Assembly (NCBI GenBank): GCA_018820925.1
Contig: JAHJNJ010000017.1
Span: 8,064 to 72,063 of the forward strand
Reading direction: 5' to 3'
DNA: 64,000 nucleotides
From: Gammaproteobacteria bacterium
GTDB taxonomy: Bacteria; Pseudomonadota; Gammaproteobacteria; Burkholderiales; Gallionellaceae
Position 1 is the first letter of the stretch. Every line of letters starts with the position of its first letter. The position numbers were made by a program, and so were the translations under genes. Positions 31,567-42,000 of the stretch are shown here, in pieces. The notes under the pieces are model-generated. The model saw only the letters and a program-made list of their open reading frames with translations. It was not told where the DNA came from and made no database searches.

Positions 31567-32352
31567 ATGCTGAAATTTTCCAAGTTCGCGCTTCTGTCGG
31601 CTTTGCTGGCCTTTGCAGCAGCCGTACAAGCTGCCGATGACAAACCCGAAGCACTGGTTAACGGCGTATCCATCCCCAAATCCCGCGTTGATTTGCGCGT
31701 CAAAATCGCCGCGCAACAGAACCAGCCGGACAGCCCGGAATTGCGCAAAGCGATTGTCGATGAACTTGTCGGTCTGGAGTTTCTCTCGCAAGCCGCCGTC
31801 AAGGAAGGTCTCGACAAACAGCCGGAGACAGTTCAGCGCCTGGAAATTACACGACAAAACGTGCTGGCCGATGCGCTCGTACAAAATTACGTCAAGACCC
31901 ATCCCGTCACCGACGACCAGTTGAAGCAGGAATACGAGGTCTTCAAGAACCGCATCGGGAAAACAGAATACAAGCTGTCGCACATTCTGGTGGACACGGA
32001 AGATGAAGCCAAAAAAATTGCGGCCAGCCTGAAAAAAGGCGGCAATTTTGCCAAGCTCGCCAAGAGCAAGAGCAAGGATCCGAGCGCCAAGGAAAACAGC
32101 GGCGAATTGGGCTGGACCATTCCGGCCAAGTTTGTGCAGCCTTTCGCCGAAGCCATCACCAAGCTGAAGAAAGGCCAGATCAGCGCCCCGGTGCAAACCC
32201 AGTTCGGCTGGCACATCATTAAGCTGGAAGACACGCGCGACCTGAAAGTGCCGTCTCTGGAAGACATGAAACCAAACATTGAAAACAGCCTGCATCAACA
32301 GGCGGTCAAGAAATATATCGACGAGCTGCGCAGCAAGGCCAAGATCGAATAA
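31567..32352 (+). CDS. PpiC/parvulin-type peptidyl-prolyl isomerase
   Basis: Signal peptide; SHILV, SKDPS, GELGW, PVQTQFGWHII. Confidence 0.92.
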   Translation: MLKFSKFALLSALLAFAAAVQAADDKPEALVNGVSIPKSRVDLRVKIAAQQNQPDSPELRKAIVDELVGLEFLSQAAVKEGLDKQPETVQRLEITRQNVLADALVQNYVKTHPVTDDQLKQEYEVFKNRIGKTEYKLSHILVDTEDEAKKIAASLKKGGNFAKLAKSKSKDPSAKENSGELGWTIPAKFVQPFAEAITKLKKGQISAPVQTQFGWHIIKLEDTRDLKVPSLEDMKPNIENSLHQQAVKKYIDELRSKAKIE

Positions 32353-32370
32353 TCCTGCTACTCAGCTTCC

Positions 32371-32402
32371 AAAAAAGGACATCCCGGTGATGTCCTTTTT
32401 TT
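32371..32402 (+). terminator. Rho-independent terminator (bidirectional type)
   Basis: AAAAAAGGACATC-ccggt-GATGTCCTTTTTT. Confidence 0.85.
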
Positions 32403-32491
32403 ATGGGCGAACCGCCCGGAAATTTGAATATTCAAGACACCCACTCACCCCCCAGTTACAATGCCGGCAAGCCCATGAGCATCATGTAGAT

Positions 32492-35400
32492 ATGCATAAA
32501 CTCACCCTGCAATCCGTCCTTTCGCCCTCGGTGTTCACCGTTGCGCCGGATGCGCCCTTGCCCGATGTGCTGGCCAGCATGGAATCGATGCGCATCAGCT
32601 GTGTGGTCGCGGTAGACAAGTCTAATCGCCCGCTGGGCATTTTCACCGAACAGGATGCCATTCGCCTGATGGCAGAACGCAGAGTGGTGGCGAAACTGCA
32701 TATGTCCGAGGTGATGAGCGCCTCTCCACTTACAGCACCGTCCAGTCTGGATTTCCGCGATGCATACCGGCTGATTTCGGAAAAAGGCTTCCGGCATCTC
32801 GTTGTGGTGGACGATAGAGGCGGTGTCGCCGGCGTGGTCAGCGAAGCGGATTTCATGCAGCACATGGGCATGGAGTATCTGGTCGGCATCAAGAACGTCG
32901 GCAGTGCCATGACGCGCGATCTCATCAGCCTGAAAGAGGACGCCACACTGGCCGATGCGGTCGATTTGATGACCAGAAAGAAGATCAGCTGCGTCATCGT
33001 CACCCGGGAAAACACTCCAGTCGGCATTCTGACCGAACGCGATGCCGCAGGACTCGCGCGCACCATCAGCGACCCAACAAGAATCGGCATCGCAAGCGTG
33101 ATGAAATCGCCGGTGCAAACCGTCGAGGCCGCTTTGTCGATACCGGACGCCATGCTGCGGATGGAATCAACCGGTATCCGCCGCCTGGTCGTGGTTGAGG
33201 AAGGGATATTGGCCGGGATTGTCACCCGCCACGACTTCGTCAAGACCATGCAGGGGCGTTATATCGAATTCCTGTACGAGACGCTGGATTTTCAACGCAA
33301 GGATTTGTTCCTTGCGCAAAAACAAGTCGAACAAACGCGCCAGCAACTGCTGTACCACAGCCTGATGGAACAGATCAACGATGCGATCTTCGTCATCAAG
33401 GCGGAAAACGGCGGCGTTGTCGATTGCAACGAGCAGGCCTGCCGCGATCTGGATTACACGCGCGACGAGTTGTTGCGCATGACCCTCTTCGACTTCACCA
33501 CCCGTCTCAAGCCCGGCCCGCTCTGGCAAGCCGAACTGGAGGTCATCTCCCGCGAAGAACACCGGATAACCGGGACACACCACAGGCGCCGCGATGGAAC
33601 CATTTTCCCGGTTGAAATCAACGCGCACCTCATCCGGAAAGATAACGAACGCTTCATCGTCGCCGTCGCGCGCAACCTGACCGAACGCAAACGCGCCGAG
33701 ACGCAGCTGCACCTGCAGGATACGGCACTCAACTCCTCGGCCAACGCCGTGGTCATCACCGACAGGGATGCCGTCATCCAGTGGGCGAATCCGGCGTTTT
33801 CGGAAATGACCGGTTTCACACTGGAAGAAACCATCGGCAAGCGTCCGAAAGATCTGGTGACTTCAGGCATCCAGCCCCCGGGCTTCTATGATGCACTCTG
33901 GAGCACCATCCTGAGCGGCCAGGTATGGCGCGGCGAGCTGGTCAACAAGCGCAAGGATGGCTCGCTGTATACCGAAGAAATGACCATCACGCCGGTGCAT
34001 ACGGAAAACGAAACCATTACGCATTTCATCGCCGTCAAACAGAACATCAGCGAACGCAAAAAAATTGAAGCGCAATTGCGCGAAGCCGCTGCCGTCATGC
34101 AGAACACGCATGAAGGCGTGGTCATTACCGACACGACGCCGCACATTCTCGCTGTCAACGATGCCTACACAACCATCACGGGCTATTCCCGCGATGAAGC
34201 AATCGGCAAAGACCCGGGCATTCTCAACTCCGGACGGCAGGACAGTTCGTTCTACGAATTCATGTGGAAGACGCTGCTTCATGACGGTTTTTGGCAGGGA
34301 GAACTGTGGAACCGGCGCAAGAACGGCGAAATCTACCCGCAATGGATGAGCATCAGCGCCGTCCTCAACGACCAGCAGCAACCCGTGCGTTACATCGGCG
34401 TGTTCTCGGATATTTCGAAACTGAAGGAAAGCCAGTCGCAACTGGAATTCCTCGCCCACCACGACCCGCTGACCCGGCTCTTCAACCGCTCCGCGGTTGA
34501 GTCGCGCATGGAACATGAACTGGAGCAGGCGAAACGGCATGACCGTGCGTTAAGCGTGCTGTTCATCGACCTGGATCGTTTCAAGCAGGTGAACGACAGT
34601 TTCGGCCACCTGATCGGCGACGAACTCCTGTGCAGCGTGGCCGAACGCCTGCGGGCACGCCTGCGCGATGGCGATGTGTTGGGCCGCCTGGGCGGCGATG
34701 AATTTGTCCTGCTGGCGTCGCCGTTGCAGGAAAAACAGGATGCCGCCGTCATTGCGCGCGACATCCTCGTTGCCTTGAGCGAACCGTACAATCTTTCCAC
34801 CGGACACGAAGTGTTCATCGGCGGCAGTATCGGCATCAGCCTGTTCCCGGACAACGGTTCGACGGTGGCCGAGTTGACCAAGAATGCGGATGCCGCGATG
34901 TATCTGGCCAAGGAAAACGGCCGCAACCAGTTTTCTTTCTACACGCCGGAATTGAACGCCGATGCGCGCAAGAAACTGGAACTGGAAAACGACCTGCGCC
35001 GCGCCGTCATGCACAACGAATTGCGCTTGCACTACCAGCCCAAAGTGAATATCGACAACGGGCAAATCAGCGGCGCCGAAGCACTCGTGCGCTGGAAACG
35101 ATCCGACGGTAGTTGGGTATCGCCCGGCGAATTCATCCCGGTTGCGGAAAAATCCGGTGTCATCCTGACCATTGGCAACTGGGTGATCGATCAGGCCTGT
35201 GCGCAGATACGCGCCTGGATGGAAGACGGACTGCCGGAAATTTGCGTCGCCGTGAACGTCTCGGCACGCCAGTTCCGCAGCGGCCATCTGGACAAACTGG
35301 TCAGGAATGCGCTGGAAAAACACGGAGTCCTGCCGCATCAACTGGAACTGGAACTGACCGAGAGCATGCTGATGAACGAGCCGGAGCACGCCATCGACAC

Positions 35401-35752
35401 CATGAACAAGTTGAAGAGGATCGGTGTGAAGATATCGCTCGACGATTTCGGGACGGGCTATTCCAATTTCGGCTACCTGAGACGTTTCCCGATCGACAGC
35501 CTGAAGATCGACCAGTCTTTTGTGCGCGGCGTGGCCATCAAAGCGGACGATGCGATGATCGTCGATTCGATCATCGGCCTGGCACAGCGCATGAAACTGC
35601 ATGTCATCGCCGAAGGCGTCGAGACCGCCGACCAGCTCCATTATCTGCGCACCAACCACTGCGACGAAATACAGGGGTATTATTTCAGCAAGGCGCTACC
35701 AGCCGAAGCATTCGCCGAATTGCTGCGCAGCGGGAAAAGATTGCTGGATTGA
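32492..35752 (+). CDS. CBS-CBS-PAS(3)-GGDEF-EAL c-di-GMP enzyme
   Basis: Two CBS pairs (RHLVVVD, RRLVVVE), PAS repeats, HDPLT, RDGD-x5-GGDEF, AEALVRW, DDFGTGYS; start approximate. Confidence 0.9.
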   Translation: MHKLTLQSVLSPSVFTVAPDAPLPDVLASMESMRISCVVAVDKSNRPLGIFTEQDAIRLMAERRVVAKLHMSEVMSASPLTAPSSLDFRDAYRLISEKGFRHLVVVDDRGGVAGVVSEADFMQHMGMEYLVGIKNVGSAMTRDLISLKEDATLADAVDLMTRKKISCVIVTRENTPVGILTERDAAGLARTISDPTRIGIASVMKSPVQTVEAALSIPDAMLRMESTGIRRLVVVEEGILAGIVTRHDFVKTMQGRYIEFLYETLDFQRKDLFLAQKQVEQTRQQLLYHSLMEQINDAIFVIKAENGGVVDCNEQACRDLDYTRDELLRMTLFDFTTRLKPGPLWQAELEVISREEHRITGTHHRRRDGTIFPVEINAHLIRKDNERFIVAVARNLTERKRAETQLHLQDTALNSSANAVVITDRDAVIQWANPAFSEMTGFTLEETIGKRPKDLVTSGIQPPGFYDALWSTILSGQVWRGELVNKRKDGSLYTEEMTITPVHTENETITHFIAVKQNISERKKIEAQLREAAAVMQNTHEGVVITDTTPHILAVNDAYTTITGYSRDEAIGKDPGILNSGRQDSSFYEFMWKTLLHDGFWQGELWNRRKNGEIYPQWMSISAVLNDQQQPVRYIGVFSDISKLKESQSQLEFLAHHDPLTRLFNRSAVESRMEHELEQAKRHDRALSVLFIDLDRFKQVNDSFGHLIGDELLCSVAERLRARLRDGDVLGRLGGDEFVLLASPLQEKQDAAVIARDILVALSEPYNLSTGHEVFIGGSIGISLFPDNGSTVAELTKNADAAMYLAKENGRNQFSFYTPELNADARKKLELENDLRRAVMHNELRLHYQPKVNIDNGQISGAEALVRWKRSDGSWVSPGEFIPVAEKSGVILTIGNWVIDQACAQIRAWMEDGLPEICVAVNVSARQFRSGHLDKLVRNALEKHGVLPHQLELELTESMLMNEPEHAIDTMNKLKRIGVKISLDDFGTGYSNFGYLRRFPIDSLKIDQSFVRGVAIKADDAMIVDSIIGLAQRMKLHVIAEGVETADQLHYLRTNHCDEIQGYYFSKALPAEAFAELLRSGKRLLD

Positions 35753-35789
35753 TCGTGAAAGACGCAGTTGGATGAATGCTCTGATAATT

Positions 35790-37481
35790 TGTAGTAGTTC
35801 CAACTTCATCTGACAGATACTGTCCGAAGTTCGGCCTAAGCGGACTATCGCGAGATCTCTTTGTTGCTTCTGCTCTAGGACTAATAACGGACGGTTGAAA
35901 TTTCTCTAAGTAGCCGACCTTTATGCATGTATAAGCCAGAGATATACCTTTTGGCATATTGCCTTGCTGTTAACTGCAGCCTAAGCTTCGGCATCCTTAC
36001 TTACTATGCATCCCTCGTTGTTTCCAGCAGCACAGACTCGCAGGTCCGTCTATTAATGGTCAGTTCATCATGGAAGAAGAAAAATGAAATCCTCAACCCT
36101 AAATACGTTGTTGGTTGCTAAGTCTATCTACACCGAAACAAAAAGCTTGGTTAATTCGGGCGACAAACATTTCTGTACTGCAGGAATTATCCTGCTCCAG
36201 GATTTTGTTGAGCTAGTTGTCTTGGCAGCATTGGATGAGCTAGATGTTGATGAACAAAGAAGTCTGGAGTCCAAATGTTTTGACGAACTGCTAGGGGAAT
36301 TAAAAATTCAGGGAATTCCAATAATTAAGTCAGGAACCATCAAGGCATTGAATAAGCAGAGAGTGATTTCAAAACACTATGGTCAACTGACTGAGTCTGC
36401 ATCTGCGGTTAATTATTTCAATGTGGCAGAAATATTTGTTGATGACCTTTTGAAAAAAGTCACCGGAAAAACGCTTCAAGAAATCTTTATGACAGACCTC
36501 CTAAAGGAGGGGGCGGTTAAAGAAGCTGTGAAATTTGCAATTACTTTGTCTGACCAAGAAAACTTCATCGATGCATTAGTTGAACTACGAAAAGCTTTTT
36601 TTCTAGGGTACGAGAAAGACTTTTCAATCTACGCATGGAAAGATCAAGATAAAGTTCACTCTCCCGCTGTTGGGCTATTAAGTTTTTTTCGTGGTGGCAC
36701 CAAGGCCCACAACTGGAAGAAGAACAAACAGTGGATCGATGAAAATGTCACAGAACCTACAGATTACGTTCAGATAGATTACGATCAATTAAAAATTGAC
36801 TGCATGGAATGGGGACTTAGTACCGTTCATGTTGATAACTTCAGGAGGCTGACACCTAAGGTAATCGAGACAGCGAAAGACCAATGGCATACAAGTTACG
36901 AATCAGGCCTTGTCGCCAATGAAGCGAACATTGAAAATTTCCGTTATTGCTTGGATTTGCTATTGGATTTTCTACTAAAAAAGCAGGAGTTTGATTCCAG
37001 AATGAAATGGCCAAAGTCAGAAAAATCCATCCCCCCACCACCTATTTATATTGATAAGCCTGTTTATGAAAAACCAAATCCGGGATCAAAAGTTGTGCAT
37101 ATGGTCCAAGCTGATTATTTCTATTCAGTCGATAGGGTCGTAACAGGGTTTGATAGCAAGGAGCGATATTTATACGTCCATTTATATCAAGAAGATAATG
37201 GTGCTAGGATGAATCATGTTCGCGGCTACCTACTTGTTGAAGAAGAAAACTAACAAAGTCATGCCGTCGGACAAAAGCGTGGGTCGGGCGATGCGCCCGC
37301 TTAATTAAGCTTAAGCAGGCGCATTCAAGACGATGAAATGAACCGGAGTCGAATTGTTTTTGCCACTCATAAAATCGAGTGACTACTGTTGGCCATAGCG
37401 GAAGTTGCGCTCCGCTATTCTGAATTTCCGCAATGGCCGAATTTCGGACAGTGTCTGTCAGATCAAGTCGCGACTACTACA
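35790..37481. mobile_element. Non-autonomous transposable cassette with 47-bp TGT...ACA terminal inverted repeats and 7-bp target duplication
   Basis: Left IR 35790-35836 versus reverse complement of 37435-37481: 41/47 identical; GATAATT at 35783-35789 and 37482-37488; no transposase inside. Confidence 0.85.
36084..37253 (+). CDS. AT-rich hypothetical protein with HEPN-like N-terminal domain
   Basis: 389-aa ORF, visibly AT-rich; QDFVEL helix plus LNKQRVISKHYG (R-x4-H). Confidence 0.6.
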   Translation: MKSSTLNTLLVAKSIYTETKSLVNSGDKHFCTAGIILLQDFVELVVLAALDELDVDEQRSLESKCFDELLGELKIQGIPIIKSGTIKALNKQRVISKHYGQLTESASAVNYFNVAEIFVDDLLKKVTGKTLQEIFMTDLLKEGAVKEAVKFAITLSDQENFIDALVELRKAFFLGYEKDFSIYAWKDQDKVHSPAVGLLSFFRGGTKAHNWKKNKQWIDENVTEPTDYVQIDYDQLKIDCMEWGLSTVHVDNFRRLTPKVIETAKDQWHTSYESGLVANEANIENFRYCLDLLLDFLLKKQEFDSRMKWPKSEKSIPPPPIYIDKPVYEKPNPGSKVVHMVQADYFYSVDRVVTGFDSKERYLYVHLYQEDNGARMNHVRGYLLVEEEN

Positions 37482-37503
37482 GATAATTCATTATGCTGCC
37501 CAT

Positions 37504-37561
37504 GTAGGTGCGAATTCATTCGCACATAGCTCAATGGGCGTGCGAATGAATTCGCACCTAC
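37504..37561. repeat. Perfect inverted GTAGGTGCGAATTCATTCGCAC REP doublet
   Basis: 22-bp arms, exact inverse. Confidence 0.85.
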
Positions 37562-37620
37562 AAGCACCTCAACTGCGTTTTCCTGTTTTATTGCGGTATC
37601 AGCCCCGCCCGCGCGAAGCT

Positions 37621-39069
37621 TCACTGCGCCTTGGCAACCGCCTGCTTCTGCCAGCCTCCCCCCAGAGCCTTGAACAGATCGGCGACCGCGCTGCGTTGCG
37701 CGCGTTCCGCATCCAGCCGATTCAACTGGGCCTGCAGATAATTGCGCTCCACATCCAGCAATTCCAGGCGGCTCGCAATCCCCGCCTCGTAGCGCAATCC
37801 GGCCTGCTTGTACGCCGACTCCAGCGCATCGCTGCGCGCGCTTTCATAAGCCAGCACCTGCCTTGCCGCGTCCTGTGCCGACAAGGCATTGCGCACATCG
37901 CCGAAAGCGTTGGCTACCGCCTGCTTGTACTGGATCAGCACCTGATCGCGGCGCGCTTCGGCCGCATCCACCAGATACCCCACCCGGCCGGCATTGAAGA
38001 TCGGCTGGGTAATGTTGGCAGCAAACTGGAAGATGCGCGCGGGACCGGTGAACAGGTCGGAAAACGCCACGCTTTCACCGCCCACATAGCCGGTCAGCGC
38101 GAGCGAAGGAAAATACTGCGCCCGGGCAACGCCAATACGCGCATTCATTGCCACCAGACGCTGCTCGGCATCTCTCAGGTCGGGCCTGCGCAACAGCAGG
38201 TCGGAAGGCAAACCTTCCGGCACGGTTGCCACGGGCAAGGAGGGATTGCCGCGTTGCACGCTTGCCGTCATCACTTCACGCGGCGAACGTCCCAGCAACA
38301 GCGTCAGCGCGGTTTCCTGTTTGTTGCGCGCCTGGCTTATCGAAACGAGTTGCGATTGCACCGCCGCCACATCGGCTTCGGCCTGATGCAGGTCGTATTC
38401 GGAAATCAGGCCGACCGCCAGCTGTTTCCTGTTGAGGTCGATGCGTTCCTGACGGCTCGCCAGCAAACGATTGACGGCAGTCTCCTGCGCATCCAGCGCA
38501 ACGAGGGTGAAATACTGTTGCGCCACTTGCGCGGTCAGTGTCAGGCGCACGGTTTCCTGTGCCGACTCTGCCGACAACAAGTCCGCGCGCGCGGCTTCGC
38601 TGGCGCGCCTGAGCTTGCCCCACAGATCGAGCTCATAACTCGCATCGAGCGAGGTGTGCGACAGATTCTGGATGCGCGGCAAAGTCGCCGGGCGCGGAAC
38701 AGCTCCCGCCAGGGTACTTTTGGTGCGGCTCCCCATCATATGTGCACTGACGGTCGGATATAAATCCGCCCTGGAAATCCCCGCCTGCGCCTGCATTTCC
38801 AGCACCCGCGCCGCCGCCACCTGGATATCCGAGTTGTGTGCCAGCGCCTCTTCTTCGAGCCGGTCGAGCGTGGTGTCGGCATACAAATGCCACCATTGCT
38901 CATCCGCACTGTTCGCCTTGTGGGCGCTCTCGTCCTGCTGCACCGGCCATGCTTCCGGCAGCGCCATGTCGGGGCGCTTGTAGTCCGGCCCGGCGGCACA
39001 GGCTGCAAGCAGGCAGGCTGGTAACAGAACTGCGACCGCATTCAATTTTCTTTTCATCTTGCTACTCAT
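37621..39069 (-). CDS. RND efflux outer-membrane lipoprotein (OprM/NodT family)
   Basis: Lipobox LAAC-AAGPDY; SYELDLWGKL; PSDLLLRRPD; LFKALGGGW. Confidence 0.93.
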   Translation of the reverse strand: MSSKMKRKLNAVAVLLPACLLAACAAGPDYKRPDMALPEAWPVQQDESAHKANSADEQWWHLYADTTLDRLEEEALAHNSDIQVAAARVLEMQAQAGISRADLYPTVSAHMMGSRTKSTLAGAVPRPATLPRIQNLSHTSLDASYELDLWGKLRRASEAARADLLSAESAQETVRLTLTAQVAQQYFTLVALDAQETAVNRLLASRQERIDLNRKQLAVGLISEYDLHQAEADVAAVQSQLVSISQARNKQETALTLLLGRSPREVMTASVQRGNPSLPVATVPEGLPSDLLLRRPDLRDAEQRLVAMNARIGVARAQYFPSLALTGYVGGESVAFSDLFTGPARIFQFAANITQPIFNAGRVGYLVDAAEARRDQVLIQYKQAVANAFGDVRNALSAQDAARQVLAYESARSDALESAYKQAGLRYEAGIASRLELLDVERNYLQAQLNRLDAERAQRSAVADLFKALGGGWQKQAVAKAQ

Positions 39070-42000
39070 GCTTGTCCTCCTCATGCGGCGCCTTGCCGGG
39101 GAAGATGTGGCGAATCACCACGAAGAATACCGGCACCAGGAACACCGCCAATACGGTCGCGGCGATCATGCCGCCCATGACGCCGGTACCGATGGCGTGA
39201 CGCCCGTTCGCCCCGGCACCCGAGGAGAGGACCAGCGGCAGAACACCCAGCACAAAAGCGATGGAGGTCATCAGGATGGGACGGAACCTGAGGCGGCACG
39301 CTTCCAGCGTGGCGTCGATCAGGTCATGCCCCTTCTTTTGCAGGTCGAGTGCAAACTGGATGATCAGGATCGCGTTTTTCGCCGCCAGACCGATGATGAC
39401 AATCAAGCCAACCTTGAAATAGATGTCGTTGCTCAAACCGCGCATGTGGACGGCGGACAACGCACCAAGAATGCCGATGGGCACGACAAGAATGACGGCA
39501 ATCGGAATGGTCCAGCTTTCATACAGCGCCGCCAGACACAGGAACACGGCGATTACCGAGAGTCCAAACAGGAACGGTGCCTGGCTGCCGGAGAGACGCT
39601 CTTCACTGGAGGTGCCGGCCCATTCGAAACCGAAACCCGGCGGCAATCTGGACGCGATATCTTCCATTGCCGCCAACGCCTCACCGCTGCTGCGGCCGGG
39701 TGCCGCGCTGCCCGCAATCTTCATCGCCGGCAGGCCGTTGAAGCGGTCCAGCTTGGGCAGATCCACGACCCAGCGCGCGCGCGCAAATTCGGACAGCGTC
39801 ACCATCCCGCCCTGCGCATTGCGCACCGGTATCTGCAATATGCTTCTCGGCGTGGCGCGCGTGCCGGGCTCTGCCTGCATCTGTACGCGCAGGATGCGGC
39901 CTTCGCGCACGAAATCGTTGATGTAGGCAACGCCCAGTGTCGACTGCAGCGTCTCGTTCAGGTCGGCAATCTCCACACCCAGTGCACGCGCTTTCAGGCG
40001 GTCGATATCGATCAACAGTTGCGGTCCCGGTTCTTGTCCCTCGGGACGCACACCGACCAGTGCCGGATTCTTGCCGGCCATGCCCAGTGCCATGTTGCGC
40101 GCTTCCATGAGCTTGGCGCGGCCCTGGCCGGAACGGTCCTGCAGGCGGAAATCGAATCCGCCCACAGCTGCCAGTTCGGGAATCGGCGGCACGTTAATGG
40201 CAAAGATGAATGCCTGCTTGATGCGGAACAGTGCCATGTTGGCACGCTTCACCATCGAGGTGGCCGAACCATCCTTGTTGGGCCGTTCATCCCAATCCTT
40301 GAGACGCACGAAGGCGATGGCGGCGTTTTGGCCGCGACCGAAAAAGGAGAACCCCAGCACACCGATGACATGTTCCACCTCGGGCTGTTGCAGATAAAAC
40401 TGTTCCACTTTTTGCAGCACTTCCTGCGAGCGTTCGCGTGTGGCGCCGGGTGGCAACTGGATCAGGTTGATGAAATAGCCCTGGTCCTCCTCGGGCAGGA
40501 AACTGGTCGGCAAGGTCACGAACAGCCAGCCCATGATGGCCAGCAGCCCGCCGTACAGCAGCAGGTAGCGGCCGGTGCGTTTCAATACAGCCGTTACGCC
40601 ATTCTTGTAGCTTTGCGTGGTCCTGGCAAAGAAGCGGTTGAACCAGCCAAGAATACCCGTCGTCGGCACCATTTCGTGACCGGGCGTGTTTTGCAGCAAT
40701 GCGGCGCACAGCGCCGGTGTCAGCGTCAGCGCCATCAGCACCGAGAACAGGATGGTCAGGATCAGGGTAACCGCGAACTGGCGGTAGATCGCACCGACGG
40801 AACCGCCGAAGAACGTCATCGGGATGAATACCGCGCACAGTACCAGCGTGATGGCAATGATGGCGCCGAAGATCTGTCCCATGGCCTTGCGTGTTGCATC
40901 ACGCGGACCGAGCCCTTCCTCGGTCATGATGCGTTCCACGTTCTCCACCACCACAATGGCATCGTCCACCACGATACCCACGGCCAGCACCATGGCAAAC
41001 AGCGTCAGCGTGTTGACCGAATAGCCGACGGCGTACAGGCCCACCAGGCCGCCGATCAGCGCGATCGGCACAACAATGGCGGGAATGAAAGTGGCGCGCA
41101 GGTTGCCCAGGAACAGGTAGATGACGATGAATACCAGCAGCATGGCTTCCGCCAGCGTTTTCACGACTTCGCTGATGGATATCTCGACGAACTTGGAGGT
41201 GTCATAAGGAATGATCCAGTCCACACCCTTGGGGAAAAACCTGGACAGCTCGTCCATCTTGGCCTTGACCGCCTTGGCGGTATCCAGCGCATTGGCGGTG
41301 GGCGACAGCCGGATCGCAATCGCCGCTGCCGGTTGCCCGTCGATGCGGGCGGCAACGGAATAGTCCTGCGCGCCCAGCTCCACCCGCGCCACGTCCTTGA
41401 CGCGCACTGAAGATCCGTCCGCGTTTGCACGCACGATGACATTGCCGAATTCCGCCACTGTCGACAAGCGGCTGCGCGTCACGATGACCGCGTTGAACTG
41501 CTGACCGGAAACGGCGGGCAAGTCCCCCAATTCACCTGTGGCGAGTTGTGCGTTCTGGGCACGCACGGCACGGCTCACATCGCCGGGTGACAGGTTGTAG
41601 GCATGCAGTTTTTCCGGCTTCAGCCACAAGCGCATCGAGTACTCGGTGCCGAACAACAGCGCCTCGCCCACGCCCGGCACACGCCGGATATTTTCCAGCA
41701 CGCTGGCAGCCGCATAACTGCCGAGCGCCACATTGTCATGACTCTTGTCCGGCGAAATGAGCGCCATGATCATCAGGAAGTTGCGCGCCGACTTGCCCAC
41801 GGTAACGCCCACACGCCGCACATCTTCCGGCAAACGTGCTTCGGCGCGCTTCACCCGGTTCTGTGTTTCGACCGACGCCACATCCAGGTCGGTACCCGCG
41901 TCAAAAGTCAGCGTGATGGTGCCGCGCCCCTGCTCGGAGGAGGAATCCATGTACAGCAGGTGTTCGATGCCGTTCAGTTCCTGCTCGACCAGCGCCACGG

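Follow-up and report, generated by a model that had tools for sequence, protein, structure and literature searches.

The question raised by this locus is what the insert between its two convergent host genes represents, and how a single gene could have arrived there without a transposase of its own. We address it through the anatomy of the insert, its relatives in the genus and in metagenomes, and the nature of the gene that it carries.

Anatomy of the element and its target site

The element occupies positions 35790-37481 of the window, by which we mean the whole stretch of 64,000 nucleotides that was analysed. It is 1692 bp long and low in GC, with TGT...ACA termini: the left terminus, TGTAGTAGTTCC..., starts at 35790, and the right terminus, ...GCGACTACTACA, stops at 37481. 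The features of the element and its surroundings are as follows.

32279-35752, plus strand: upstream host gene, putative large multidomain GGDEF-EAL-type signalling protein (sequence motifs)
35783-35789, no strand: left target-site duplication GATAATT, read directly, fitting NNTNANN
35790-35836, plus strand: left terminal inverted repeat, 47 nt, 41/47 against the right end
35837-36083, plus strand: non-coding leader of the cargo gene, which travels with the gene (contig L173)
36084-37253, plus strand: cargo gene, 389-aa protein with a predicted N-terminal HEPN-like domain and a C-terminal part of unassigned function (ORF and model)
36360-36377, plus strand: codons of the R-x4-H motif, R93-V-I-S-K-H98, invariant in 42 homologues
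37281-37314, plus strand: 14-bp imperfect hairpin 3' of the cargo gene, a possible terminator without a T-run (centroid structure)
37394-37434, minus strand: conserved subterminal part of the right end (GCGGAAATTCAG...ACTTCCGCTATG), common to other end copies
37435-37481, minus strand: right terminal inverted repeat, 47 nt, TGTAGTAGTCGCGACTTGATCTGACAG..., 41/47 against the left end
37482-37488, no strand: right target-site duplication GATAATT, read directly
37621-39084, minus strand: convergent downstream host gene, putative RND outer-membrane gene (label of the earlier note; ORF list)

An earlier note on this DNA had described 47-bp inverted ends with TGT...ACA termini, a perfect 7-bp GATAATT duplication and one AT-rich gene without a transposase, and our analysis bears out each of these descriptions. 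Aligned by BLAST, the two ends are identical at 41/47 positions (87.2%), and the termini and both copies of the duplication can be read directly. In a repeat search the inverted repeat reaches 61 nt, with 82% identity, and at the left end weaker similarity carries on to about 35850. The palindrome GTCCGAAGTTCGGCC lies within the inner part of the left inverted repeat. On the other side, the subterminal right-end sequence recurs in end copies and relics of the same genome (C40:1576-1632) and in the relatives L002, L003, and L007.

The base composition sets the element apart from its surroundings, with a GC content of 0.37-0.43 inside and 0.55-0.64 in the flanks. The cargo gene is the sole interior ORF longer than 100 aa, and its product has no transposase domain. 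An Rfam scan of the element gave no match, and promoter and terminator scans returned nothing of note.

Host-gene setting and the empty site

The insertion occupies the spacer between the two convergent host genes, the upstream of which stops 30 nt ahead of it. In the relatives G004, G006, and G090, both flanking host genes are adjacent without the 1.7-kb insert. The earlier note had proposed looking for the empty site in related strains, and the outcome is divided: the host genes adjoin each other without the insert in these three relatives, but the exact empty site, carrying a single GATAATT, turned up in none of 69 congeners. The spacer is unrelated in G004, G006, and G090, and no single GATAATT is readable in species-level relatives because the intergenic region is not conserved there. 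A search of the metagenomes for the empty-site joint returned only a joint of 35754 to 37606, in metagenome X3, where the strain concerned is more divergent and its spacer is different. A look-up of the exact protein of the downstream host gene, aimed at strain variants, returned no database record.

The ATGAAT...ATTCAT inverted repeat that the same note had read at the restored empty site is real, with one arm at 35772-35777 and the other formed by the ATT of the duplication and the following CAT. At just 6 bp, it carries little weight as evidence.

Between the element and the downstream gene, positions 37503-37562 hold a perfect 23-bp inverted repeat (TGTAGGTGCGAATTCATTCGCAC, 14-nt spacer) that is REP-like. 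This palindrome occurs at many places in the same genome and in relatives, with metagenome-contig depth spikes of 200-350x.

The ends and their IS481-family partner

The cassette ends are no chance repeat. Their terminal ~27 nt (TGTAGTAGTnnnnnCTTGATCTGACAG) match a widespread 1.2-kb insertion sequence of the IS481 family, and the first 27 nt of the right end are identical to ends in many genomes. A 25-nt end pattern occurs in 26 of the 69 genomes of the genus, against one match for the reversed control. Among the matches listed, it is also found in more than 120 stretches across bacteria, with hosts that include Nitrosospira, Nitrosomonas, Nitrotoga, Gallionellaceae, Legionella, Microbulbifer, Xenorhabdus, Desulfovibrio, and Acidobacteriota.

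Autonomous copies with the same ends are 1202-1243 bp long and contain one ORF each, which measures 347-376 aa when counted from the likely start codon and 365-394 aa as an open frame, with the domains HTH_29, rve, and rve_3. Their transposases score 284.6 and 275.2 bits on the NCBIfam IS481 model NF033577 (cut-off 224 bits), and in RefSeq the Burkholderia glumae plasmid copies, which are 80% identical, are labelled as IS481 family transposase. Exact 7-bp duplications flank full copies in Nitrosospira, Nitrosomonas, Xenorhabdus, the B. glumae plasmids and others; those around the copies L057, L076, L093, L096, and L131 are perfect, and the B. glumae plasmid copy (NZ_CP100253.1) is flanked by GGTGACT. 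Two MITEs, L138 (291 bp) and L059 (333 bp), likewise have perfect 7-bp duplications. In 120 non-redundant ends, the 7 nt outside TGT follow the target consensus NNTNANN, with T in the third and A in the fifth position in 88%. This IS481 subgroup is widespread; its duplication has a fixed length of 7 bp, and its target, NNTNANN, is symmetric.

IS481 members in general have TGT...ACA termini and duplications of 2-15 bp, mostly 6, according to ISfinder (PMC10045372). The cassette has IS481-type termini, short inverted repeats and a duplication, at 7 bp, inside this range; as it has no DDE (rve-type) transposase, it is a derivative of the IS481 family and not a member IS.

The partner surfaced only upon scanning all genomes. 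A search of 20 congener end loci for an adjacent autonomous partner found no shared protein, the neighbors including an IS30 transposase, enolase and sensor kinases. The end search suggested in the earlier note succeeded in part, giving IS481 copies elsewhere and different-cargo cassettes in the genus, but no partner in the element's own genome.

A missing transposase and present mobility

To look for the transposase at home, we ran tblastn with four cognate transposases, which found nothing in the element or in its own genome (52 contigs, 100% complete by markers). In the source metagenome, X1, nothing at least 80% alike to a Gallionellaceae copy was present except a 36-nt piece. Within the genus, a cognate transposase copy occurs only in G029, where it is broken off at a contig end. 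Absence from these assemblies is not proof, because metagenome assemblies lose repeats. Since the genome has no cognate transposase, the cassette is likely immobile now and probably stranded at its present site.

A second, unrelated IS481-like element is found in the same genome at C34:334797-336077, with an intact 410-aa ORF. Its gene (C34:334814-336043), the only IS481-like one in the genome, scores 222.6 bits, just below the cut-off, and its inverted repeats of about 30 nt (CATCGGTAACAC.TTAGTACAAGGACATGGGT) are unrelated to the cassette ends.

A transposase-less sub-family in the genus

The resemblance of the cassette to the autonomous IS is limited to the outer ~27 nt of the ends. Further inward, both ends carry GTCCGAnnTTCGGCC and additional shared sequence, whereas the motif TTACCCG...TTTGA belongs to the autonomous IS and not to the cassette. 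The GTCCGAnnTTCGGCC type of inner end marks a transposase-less sub-family of the genus, of which the same genome holds more copies or pieces near contig ends (C22, C36, C39, C40, C41, and C24). The frame belongs to this genus-wide, non-autonomous sub-family, with ends of 47 nt or longer and variable interiors.

Other members of the genus provide the closest parallels. At G073:C3:32430-35338 (L021:2430-5338), a sister cassette has about 90-nt inverted ends that lie 2909 bp apart, a duplication of AATAATC/AACAATC, and a cargo gene whose 633-aa product is a PtuA-like (Septu-type) ATPase extended at its C-terminus. In G022, a 1.68-kb end pair surrounds a 228-aa unknown protein, without a duplication, and in G027 a solo end adjoins an E1-E2/JAB-type gene. 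Many ends in the genus are partnerless within 20 kb. Other defence-like cargo in the genus is framed by the same 47-nt end type.

Several further observations concern the ends themselves. Elements of 58-75 bp in L024 (G083), L026 (G089), L089 (Thiomicrorhabdus marina), and L109 consist of two abutted IS481-type ends and have no target duplications. An IS110-family element (C22, with a 383-aa transposase ORF; family assigned by eye) sits inside the palindrome GTCCGAnG|TTCGGCC of IS481-type ends, and transposase-less IS110 derivatives of about 65-130 nt occupy the same palindrome at several independent copies. The IS110-type insertions in the end palindrome are the following.

C41:26892-27060
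C24:1-180
C39:101620-101854
C22:1-1466 with C36:117207-117481
L173:1-50
L030

Contig C40 also begins with an integron-like array (C40:1-1500), in which three ~70-nt attC-like repeats (GTCTAAC...GGGTTAG) lie between small reverse-strand ORFs. The array is followed by the relic of an IS481-type right end at C40:1576-1632.

The same site in metagenomic strains

Metagenome X2 contains the identical insertion, and metagenome X3 presents a different picture. Here, a contig with a depth of about 10x agrees, with 1 mismatch, with the left flank and the whole left end (35650-35836) and then, past 35836, continues for 420 nt into unrelated sequence (AGAGCAGAAATCC...). This alternative interior starts with AGAGCAGAAATCCAACAGC, and its first 30 nt have no match in all the sequence searched. 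On the other side, the X3 right flank adjoins the same right end without a mismatch (37453-37670). The identical right end forms a separate 48-nt contig, a graph node, of about 32x, or about three times the strain depth, and this node connects to two or more further interiors and to one further flank.

These data are Logan contigs and not reads, and they cover the X3 interior only partly. Read in this way, they indicate a near-identical strain with the same frame at the same site, another interior, and several copies of the frame. The pattern favours a mobile, multi-copy family of ends.

The cargo gene and its protein

The cargo is a foreign single-gene module with a GC content of 39%. Its leader contains no consensus sigma-70 promoter and has no Rfam match. 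Cargo and leader recur together at 92.5% nucleotide identity in the Logan contig L173, which is otherwise unrelated and in which the end of a second element interrupts the left end at GTCCGAAG|TTCGGCC. No second copy of the exact cassette was found at another chromosomal site; the closest is L173, a 1.6-kb contig without flanks.

We identified 163 homologues of the cargo protein, each of them unnamed and lacking a Pfam domain. Their hosts include Vibrio, Aeromonas, Pseudomonas, Acinetobacter, Methylophilus, and Desulfonatronum, and they also occur in many metagenomes. The residues N90, K91, Q92, R93, K97, H98, Y99, G100, and Q101 do not vary among 42 of these sequences, which extend down to 44% identity. 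They include the motif R93-VISK-H98, which has the spacing of the conserved catalytic R-x4-6-H motif of HEPN proteins. The AlphaFold2 model (pLDDT 85.4) has a helical N-terminal half, with the motif in helix 83-99, and a small beta-rich C-terminal part.

The best Foldseek matches of the model in the PDB are the HEPN proteins 2hsb, 1ufb, 8xdj, 1wol, 7bxo, and 5yep, all with E >= 0.16; the match to 2hsb has a probability of 1.00 and a TM score of 0.76 on the target, with a non-significant E-value. At the sequence level, PADLOC, NCBIfam, Pfam, and a PDB sequence profile returned nothing for the cargo protein. It has no significant match to a HEPN sequence model, and the Pfam HEPN family (PF05168) is touched by just 2 of 42 family members (E = 0.066). 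Because the fold E-values are non-significant and the sequence matches marginal, we keep a HEPN-like RNase as a likely assignment only, with about an even chance of being right. The protein would most likely act as a stand-alone RNase of HEPN type in defence or abortive infection.

The genomic surroundings of its relatives point the same way. The V. parahaemolyticus homologue is one cassette of a chromosomal integron array with about 20 attC-type repeats, and attC-like sites flank homologues of 68-80% identity. In Amphritea, the homologue adjoins a TIR-domain gene, and in Methylophilus it lies among ATPase, ubiquitin-like, and patatin genes, a defence island. Most relatives of the cargo are integron gene cassettes or reside within defence islands, and this context supports a putative defence role. 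IS481-type ends were sought around 16 cargo homologues and were found at none.

At the locus itself, an AACTAAC box (RYYYAAC-like) is still present over the cargo stop codon. We considered the cargo as an integron cassette in situ and rejected this candidate: the sequence gives no attC fold, only the 14-bp hairpin (z = -0.6 and -1.5). In the relative L175, a long attC-like hairpin is found, with z = -2.7.

Origin of the cassette

Mobile insertion cassettes (MICs) are passenger genes between IS-related repeats that have no transposase and are activated by a cognate transposase (PMC4337579). The element combines IS-related inverted repeats, no internal transposase, a passenger gene, and a duplication of the partner type. 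It is best regarded as non-autonomous, because there is no transposase inside and a matching one is absent from the genome and from the source metagenome. We are highly confident that the element is a MIC, that is, a passenger gene framed by IS481-family inverted repeats that has no transposase of its own and would have been moved in trans. The suggestion of the earlier note, a non-autonomous cassette that shuttles cargo genes, gains support from the genus, where ends of the same type enclose different cargo.

Mobilisation in trans by the cognate DDE transposase is the most likely history, as far as can be judged from the sequence. Indirect evidence comes from X3, in which the identical right end is present at several places with different interiors. 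The transposase of such an IS would have been supplied in trans and would have bound both ends. It would then have cut out or copied the frame, which would have been integrated via staggered cuts 7 bp apart into the spacer of the two convergent genes.

The X3 strain bears on the order of these events. Because it shows the same left end and site with a different interior, the cargo possibly entered an existing frame by recombination. An IS481-type frame (a MITE), empty or with a different load, would then have transposed here and made the GATAATT duplication, and the cargo would later have replaced its interior by homologous recombination or gene conversion between the 47-nt ends of two family members; the element would still be an IS481-derived cassette, with a gene that was not brought by transposition. 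Substrates for such exchange are available, since the X3 right-end node (~32x) joins several interiors and flanks. However, 47 nt is short for efficient recombination, and the Logan contigs, with their incomplete X3 interior, do not show which of the two interiors is ancestral. We consider this course of events possible but on balance unlikely. A broader version is more doubtful still: the 47-nt ends might serve as a reusable frame in which defence modules from the integron pool are swapped at a fixed site by end recombination, with a dedicated IS110-family element homing to the end palindrome. If true, this would amount to a second, transposon-framed cassette system alongside integrons.

Three further accounts are each unlikely. 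IS elements with passenger genes exist, and autonomous copies have the same terminal 27 nt, as would be expected if a full IS481 element with a passenger had inserted autonomously and then lost its transposase by internal deletion. Yet no transposase remnant lies inside the element, and inward of nt 27 its ends are those of the transposase-less sub-family (GTCCGAnnTTCGGCC...) rather than TTACCCG...TTTGA, which makes such decay very unlikely. The abundance of partnerless ends in the genus would also allow two unrelated solo ends to have come to flank a horizontally acquired gene by chance, the unit never having moved whole. The two ends are, however, inverted and of the same sub-type, and a 7/7 duplication of the family's length and target type would arise by chance with a probability of about 6e-5; we regard such a coincidence as highly improbable. 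Termini of the TGT...ACA type are also found in IS21- and Tn7-type elements, and the earlier note had named IS481, IS21, and Tn7 together as candidate partners. Every autonomous element found with these ends (TGTAGTAGT...CTGACAG) encodes one IS481-type ORF but lacks a second gene, for an ATPase; its transposase reaches just 30.5 bits on the IS21 model (cut-off 160), and the duplication is 7 bp as opposed to the 5 bp of Tn7-like elements. The match to the transposase model, the 7-bp duplications and the target fit place the partner in IS481; the chance of an IS21- or Tn7-type partner is negligible, and only the first of the three names stands.

Comparison with known systems

The cassette is closely related to the TGTAG(T/A)AGT...CTGACAG subgroup of IS481 (B. 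glumae NZ_CP100253.1, Nitrosospira sp. Nl5, and Xenorhabdus sp. BG5), with which it shares the ~27-nt ends, TGT...ACA, the 7-bp duplication and NNTNANN. The autonomous IS is 1.2 kb long and has a transposase, whereas the cassette is 1.7 kb long, has none, and diverges inward of nt 27. The subgroup itself makes 7-bp duplications, in contrast to the 6 bp of most IS481 members (PMC10045372). MITEs of the same IS (L138, L059, and the 47-nt-end elements of the genus) have the same ends and 7-bp duplication and similarly no transposase, but they contain no gene, while the cassette holds a complete gene with its leader. The IS110-type element in the end palindrome is similar to IS1111-type elements, which home to the inverted repeats of transposons.

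Compared with integron gene cassettes, the likeness lies in the cargo: relatives at 60-80% identity occur as single-gene cassettes bounded by attC sites (the V. parahaemolyticus array and metagenome contigs). The element differs in that it has no foldable attC, and its boundaries are transposon ends and a duplication, not G|TT crossover points. Because the gene family is an integron cassette in Vibrio and others and is transposon-framed here, the locus links two pools of mobile single-gene modules.

With HEPN toxins and defence RNases (HepT of HepT/MntA: 7bxo, 8xdj, and 5yep; AF_0298: 2hsb), the cargo protein would share a four-helix fold, matched in its model over ~135 residues (TM up to 0.76 on the target) at non-significant E-values, and it has the invariant R-x4-H. 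At 389 aa, it differs from them by a large additional C-terminal region, and, unlike in HepT/MntA, no antitoxin or nucleotidyltransferase gene is adjacent. The 389-aa HEPN-like family is unannotated and broadly distributed, and is a candidate for anti-phage activity.

Among MICs, the appropriate comparisons are MIC231 of Bacillus cereus and the TnXax1-derived MICs of Xanthomonas. Here, the partner is IS481, with a 7-bp duplication, and not IS231/IS4 or Tn3; the cargo is HEPN-like, from a family otherwise found mainly as integron cassettes; and the host genome has no cognate transposase. The findings leave the current understanding of transposition unaltered and offer a clean natural example of a single defence-type gene capable of movement without a mobility gene of its own. 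To the MICs already known, they add a HEPN-like cargo known elsewhere as an integron cassette, the difference in interior at the same site in X3, and an IS110-type element in the end palindrome.
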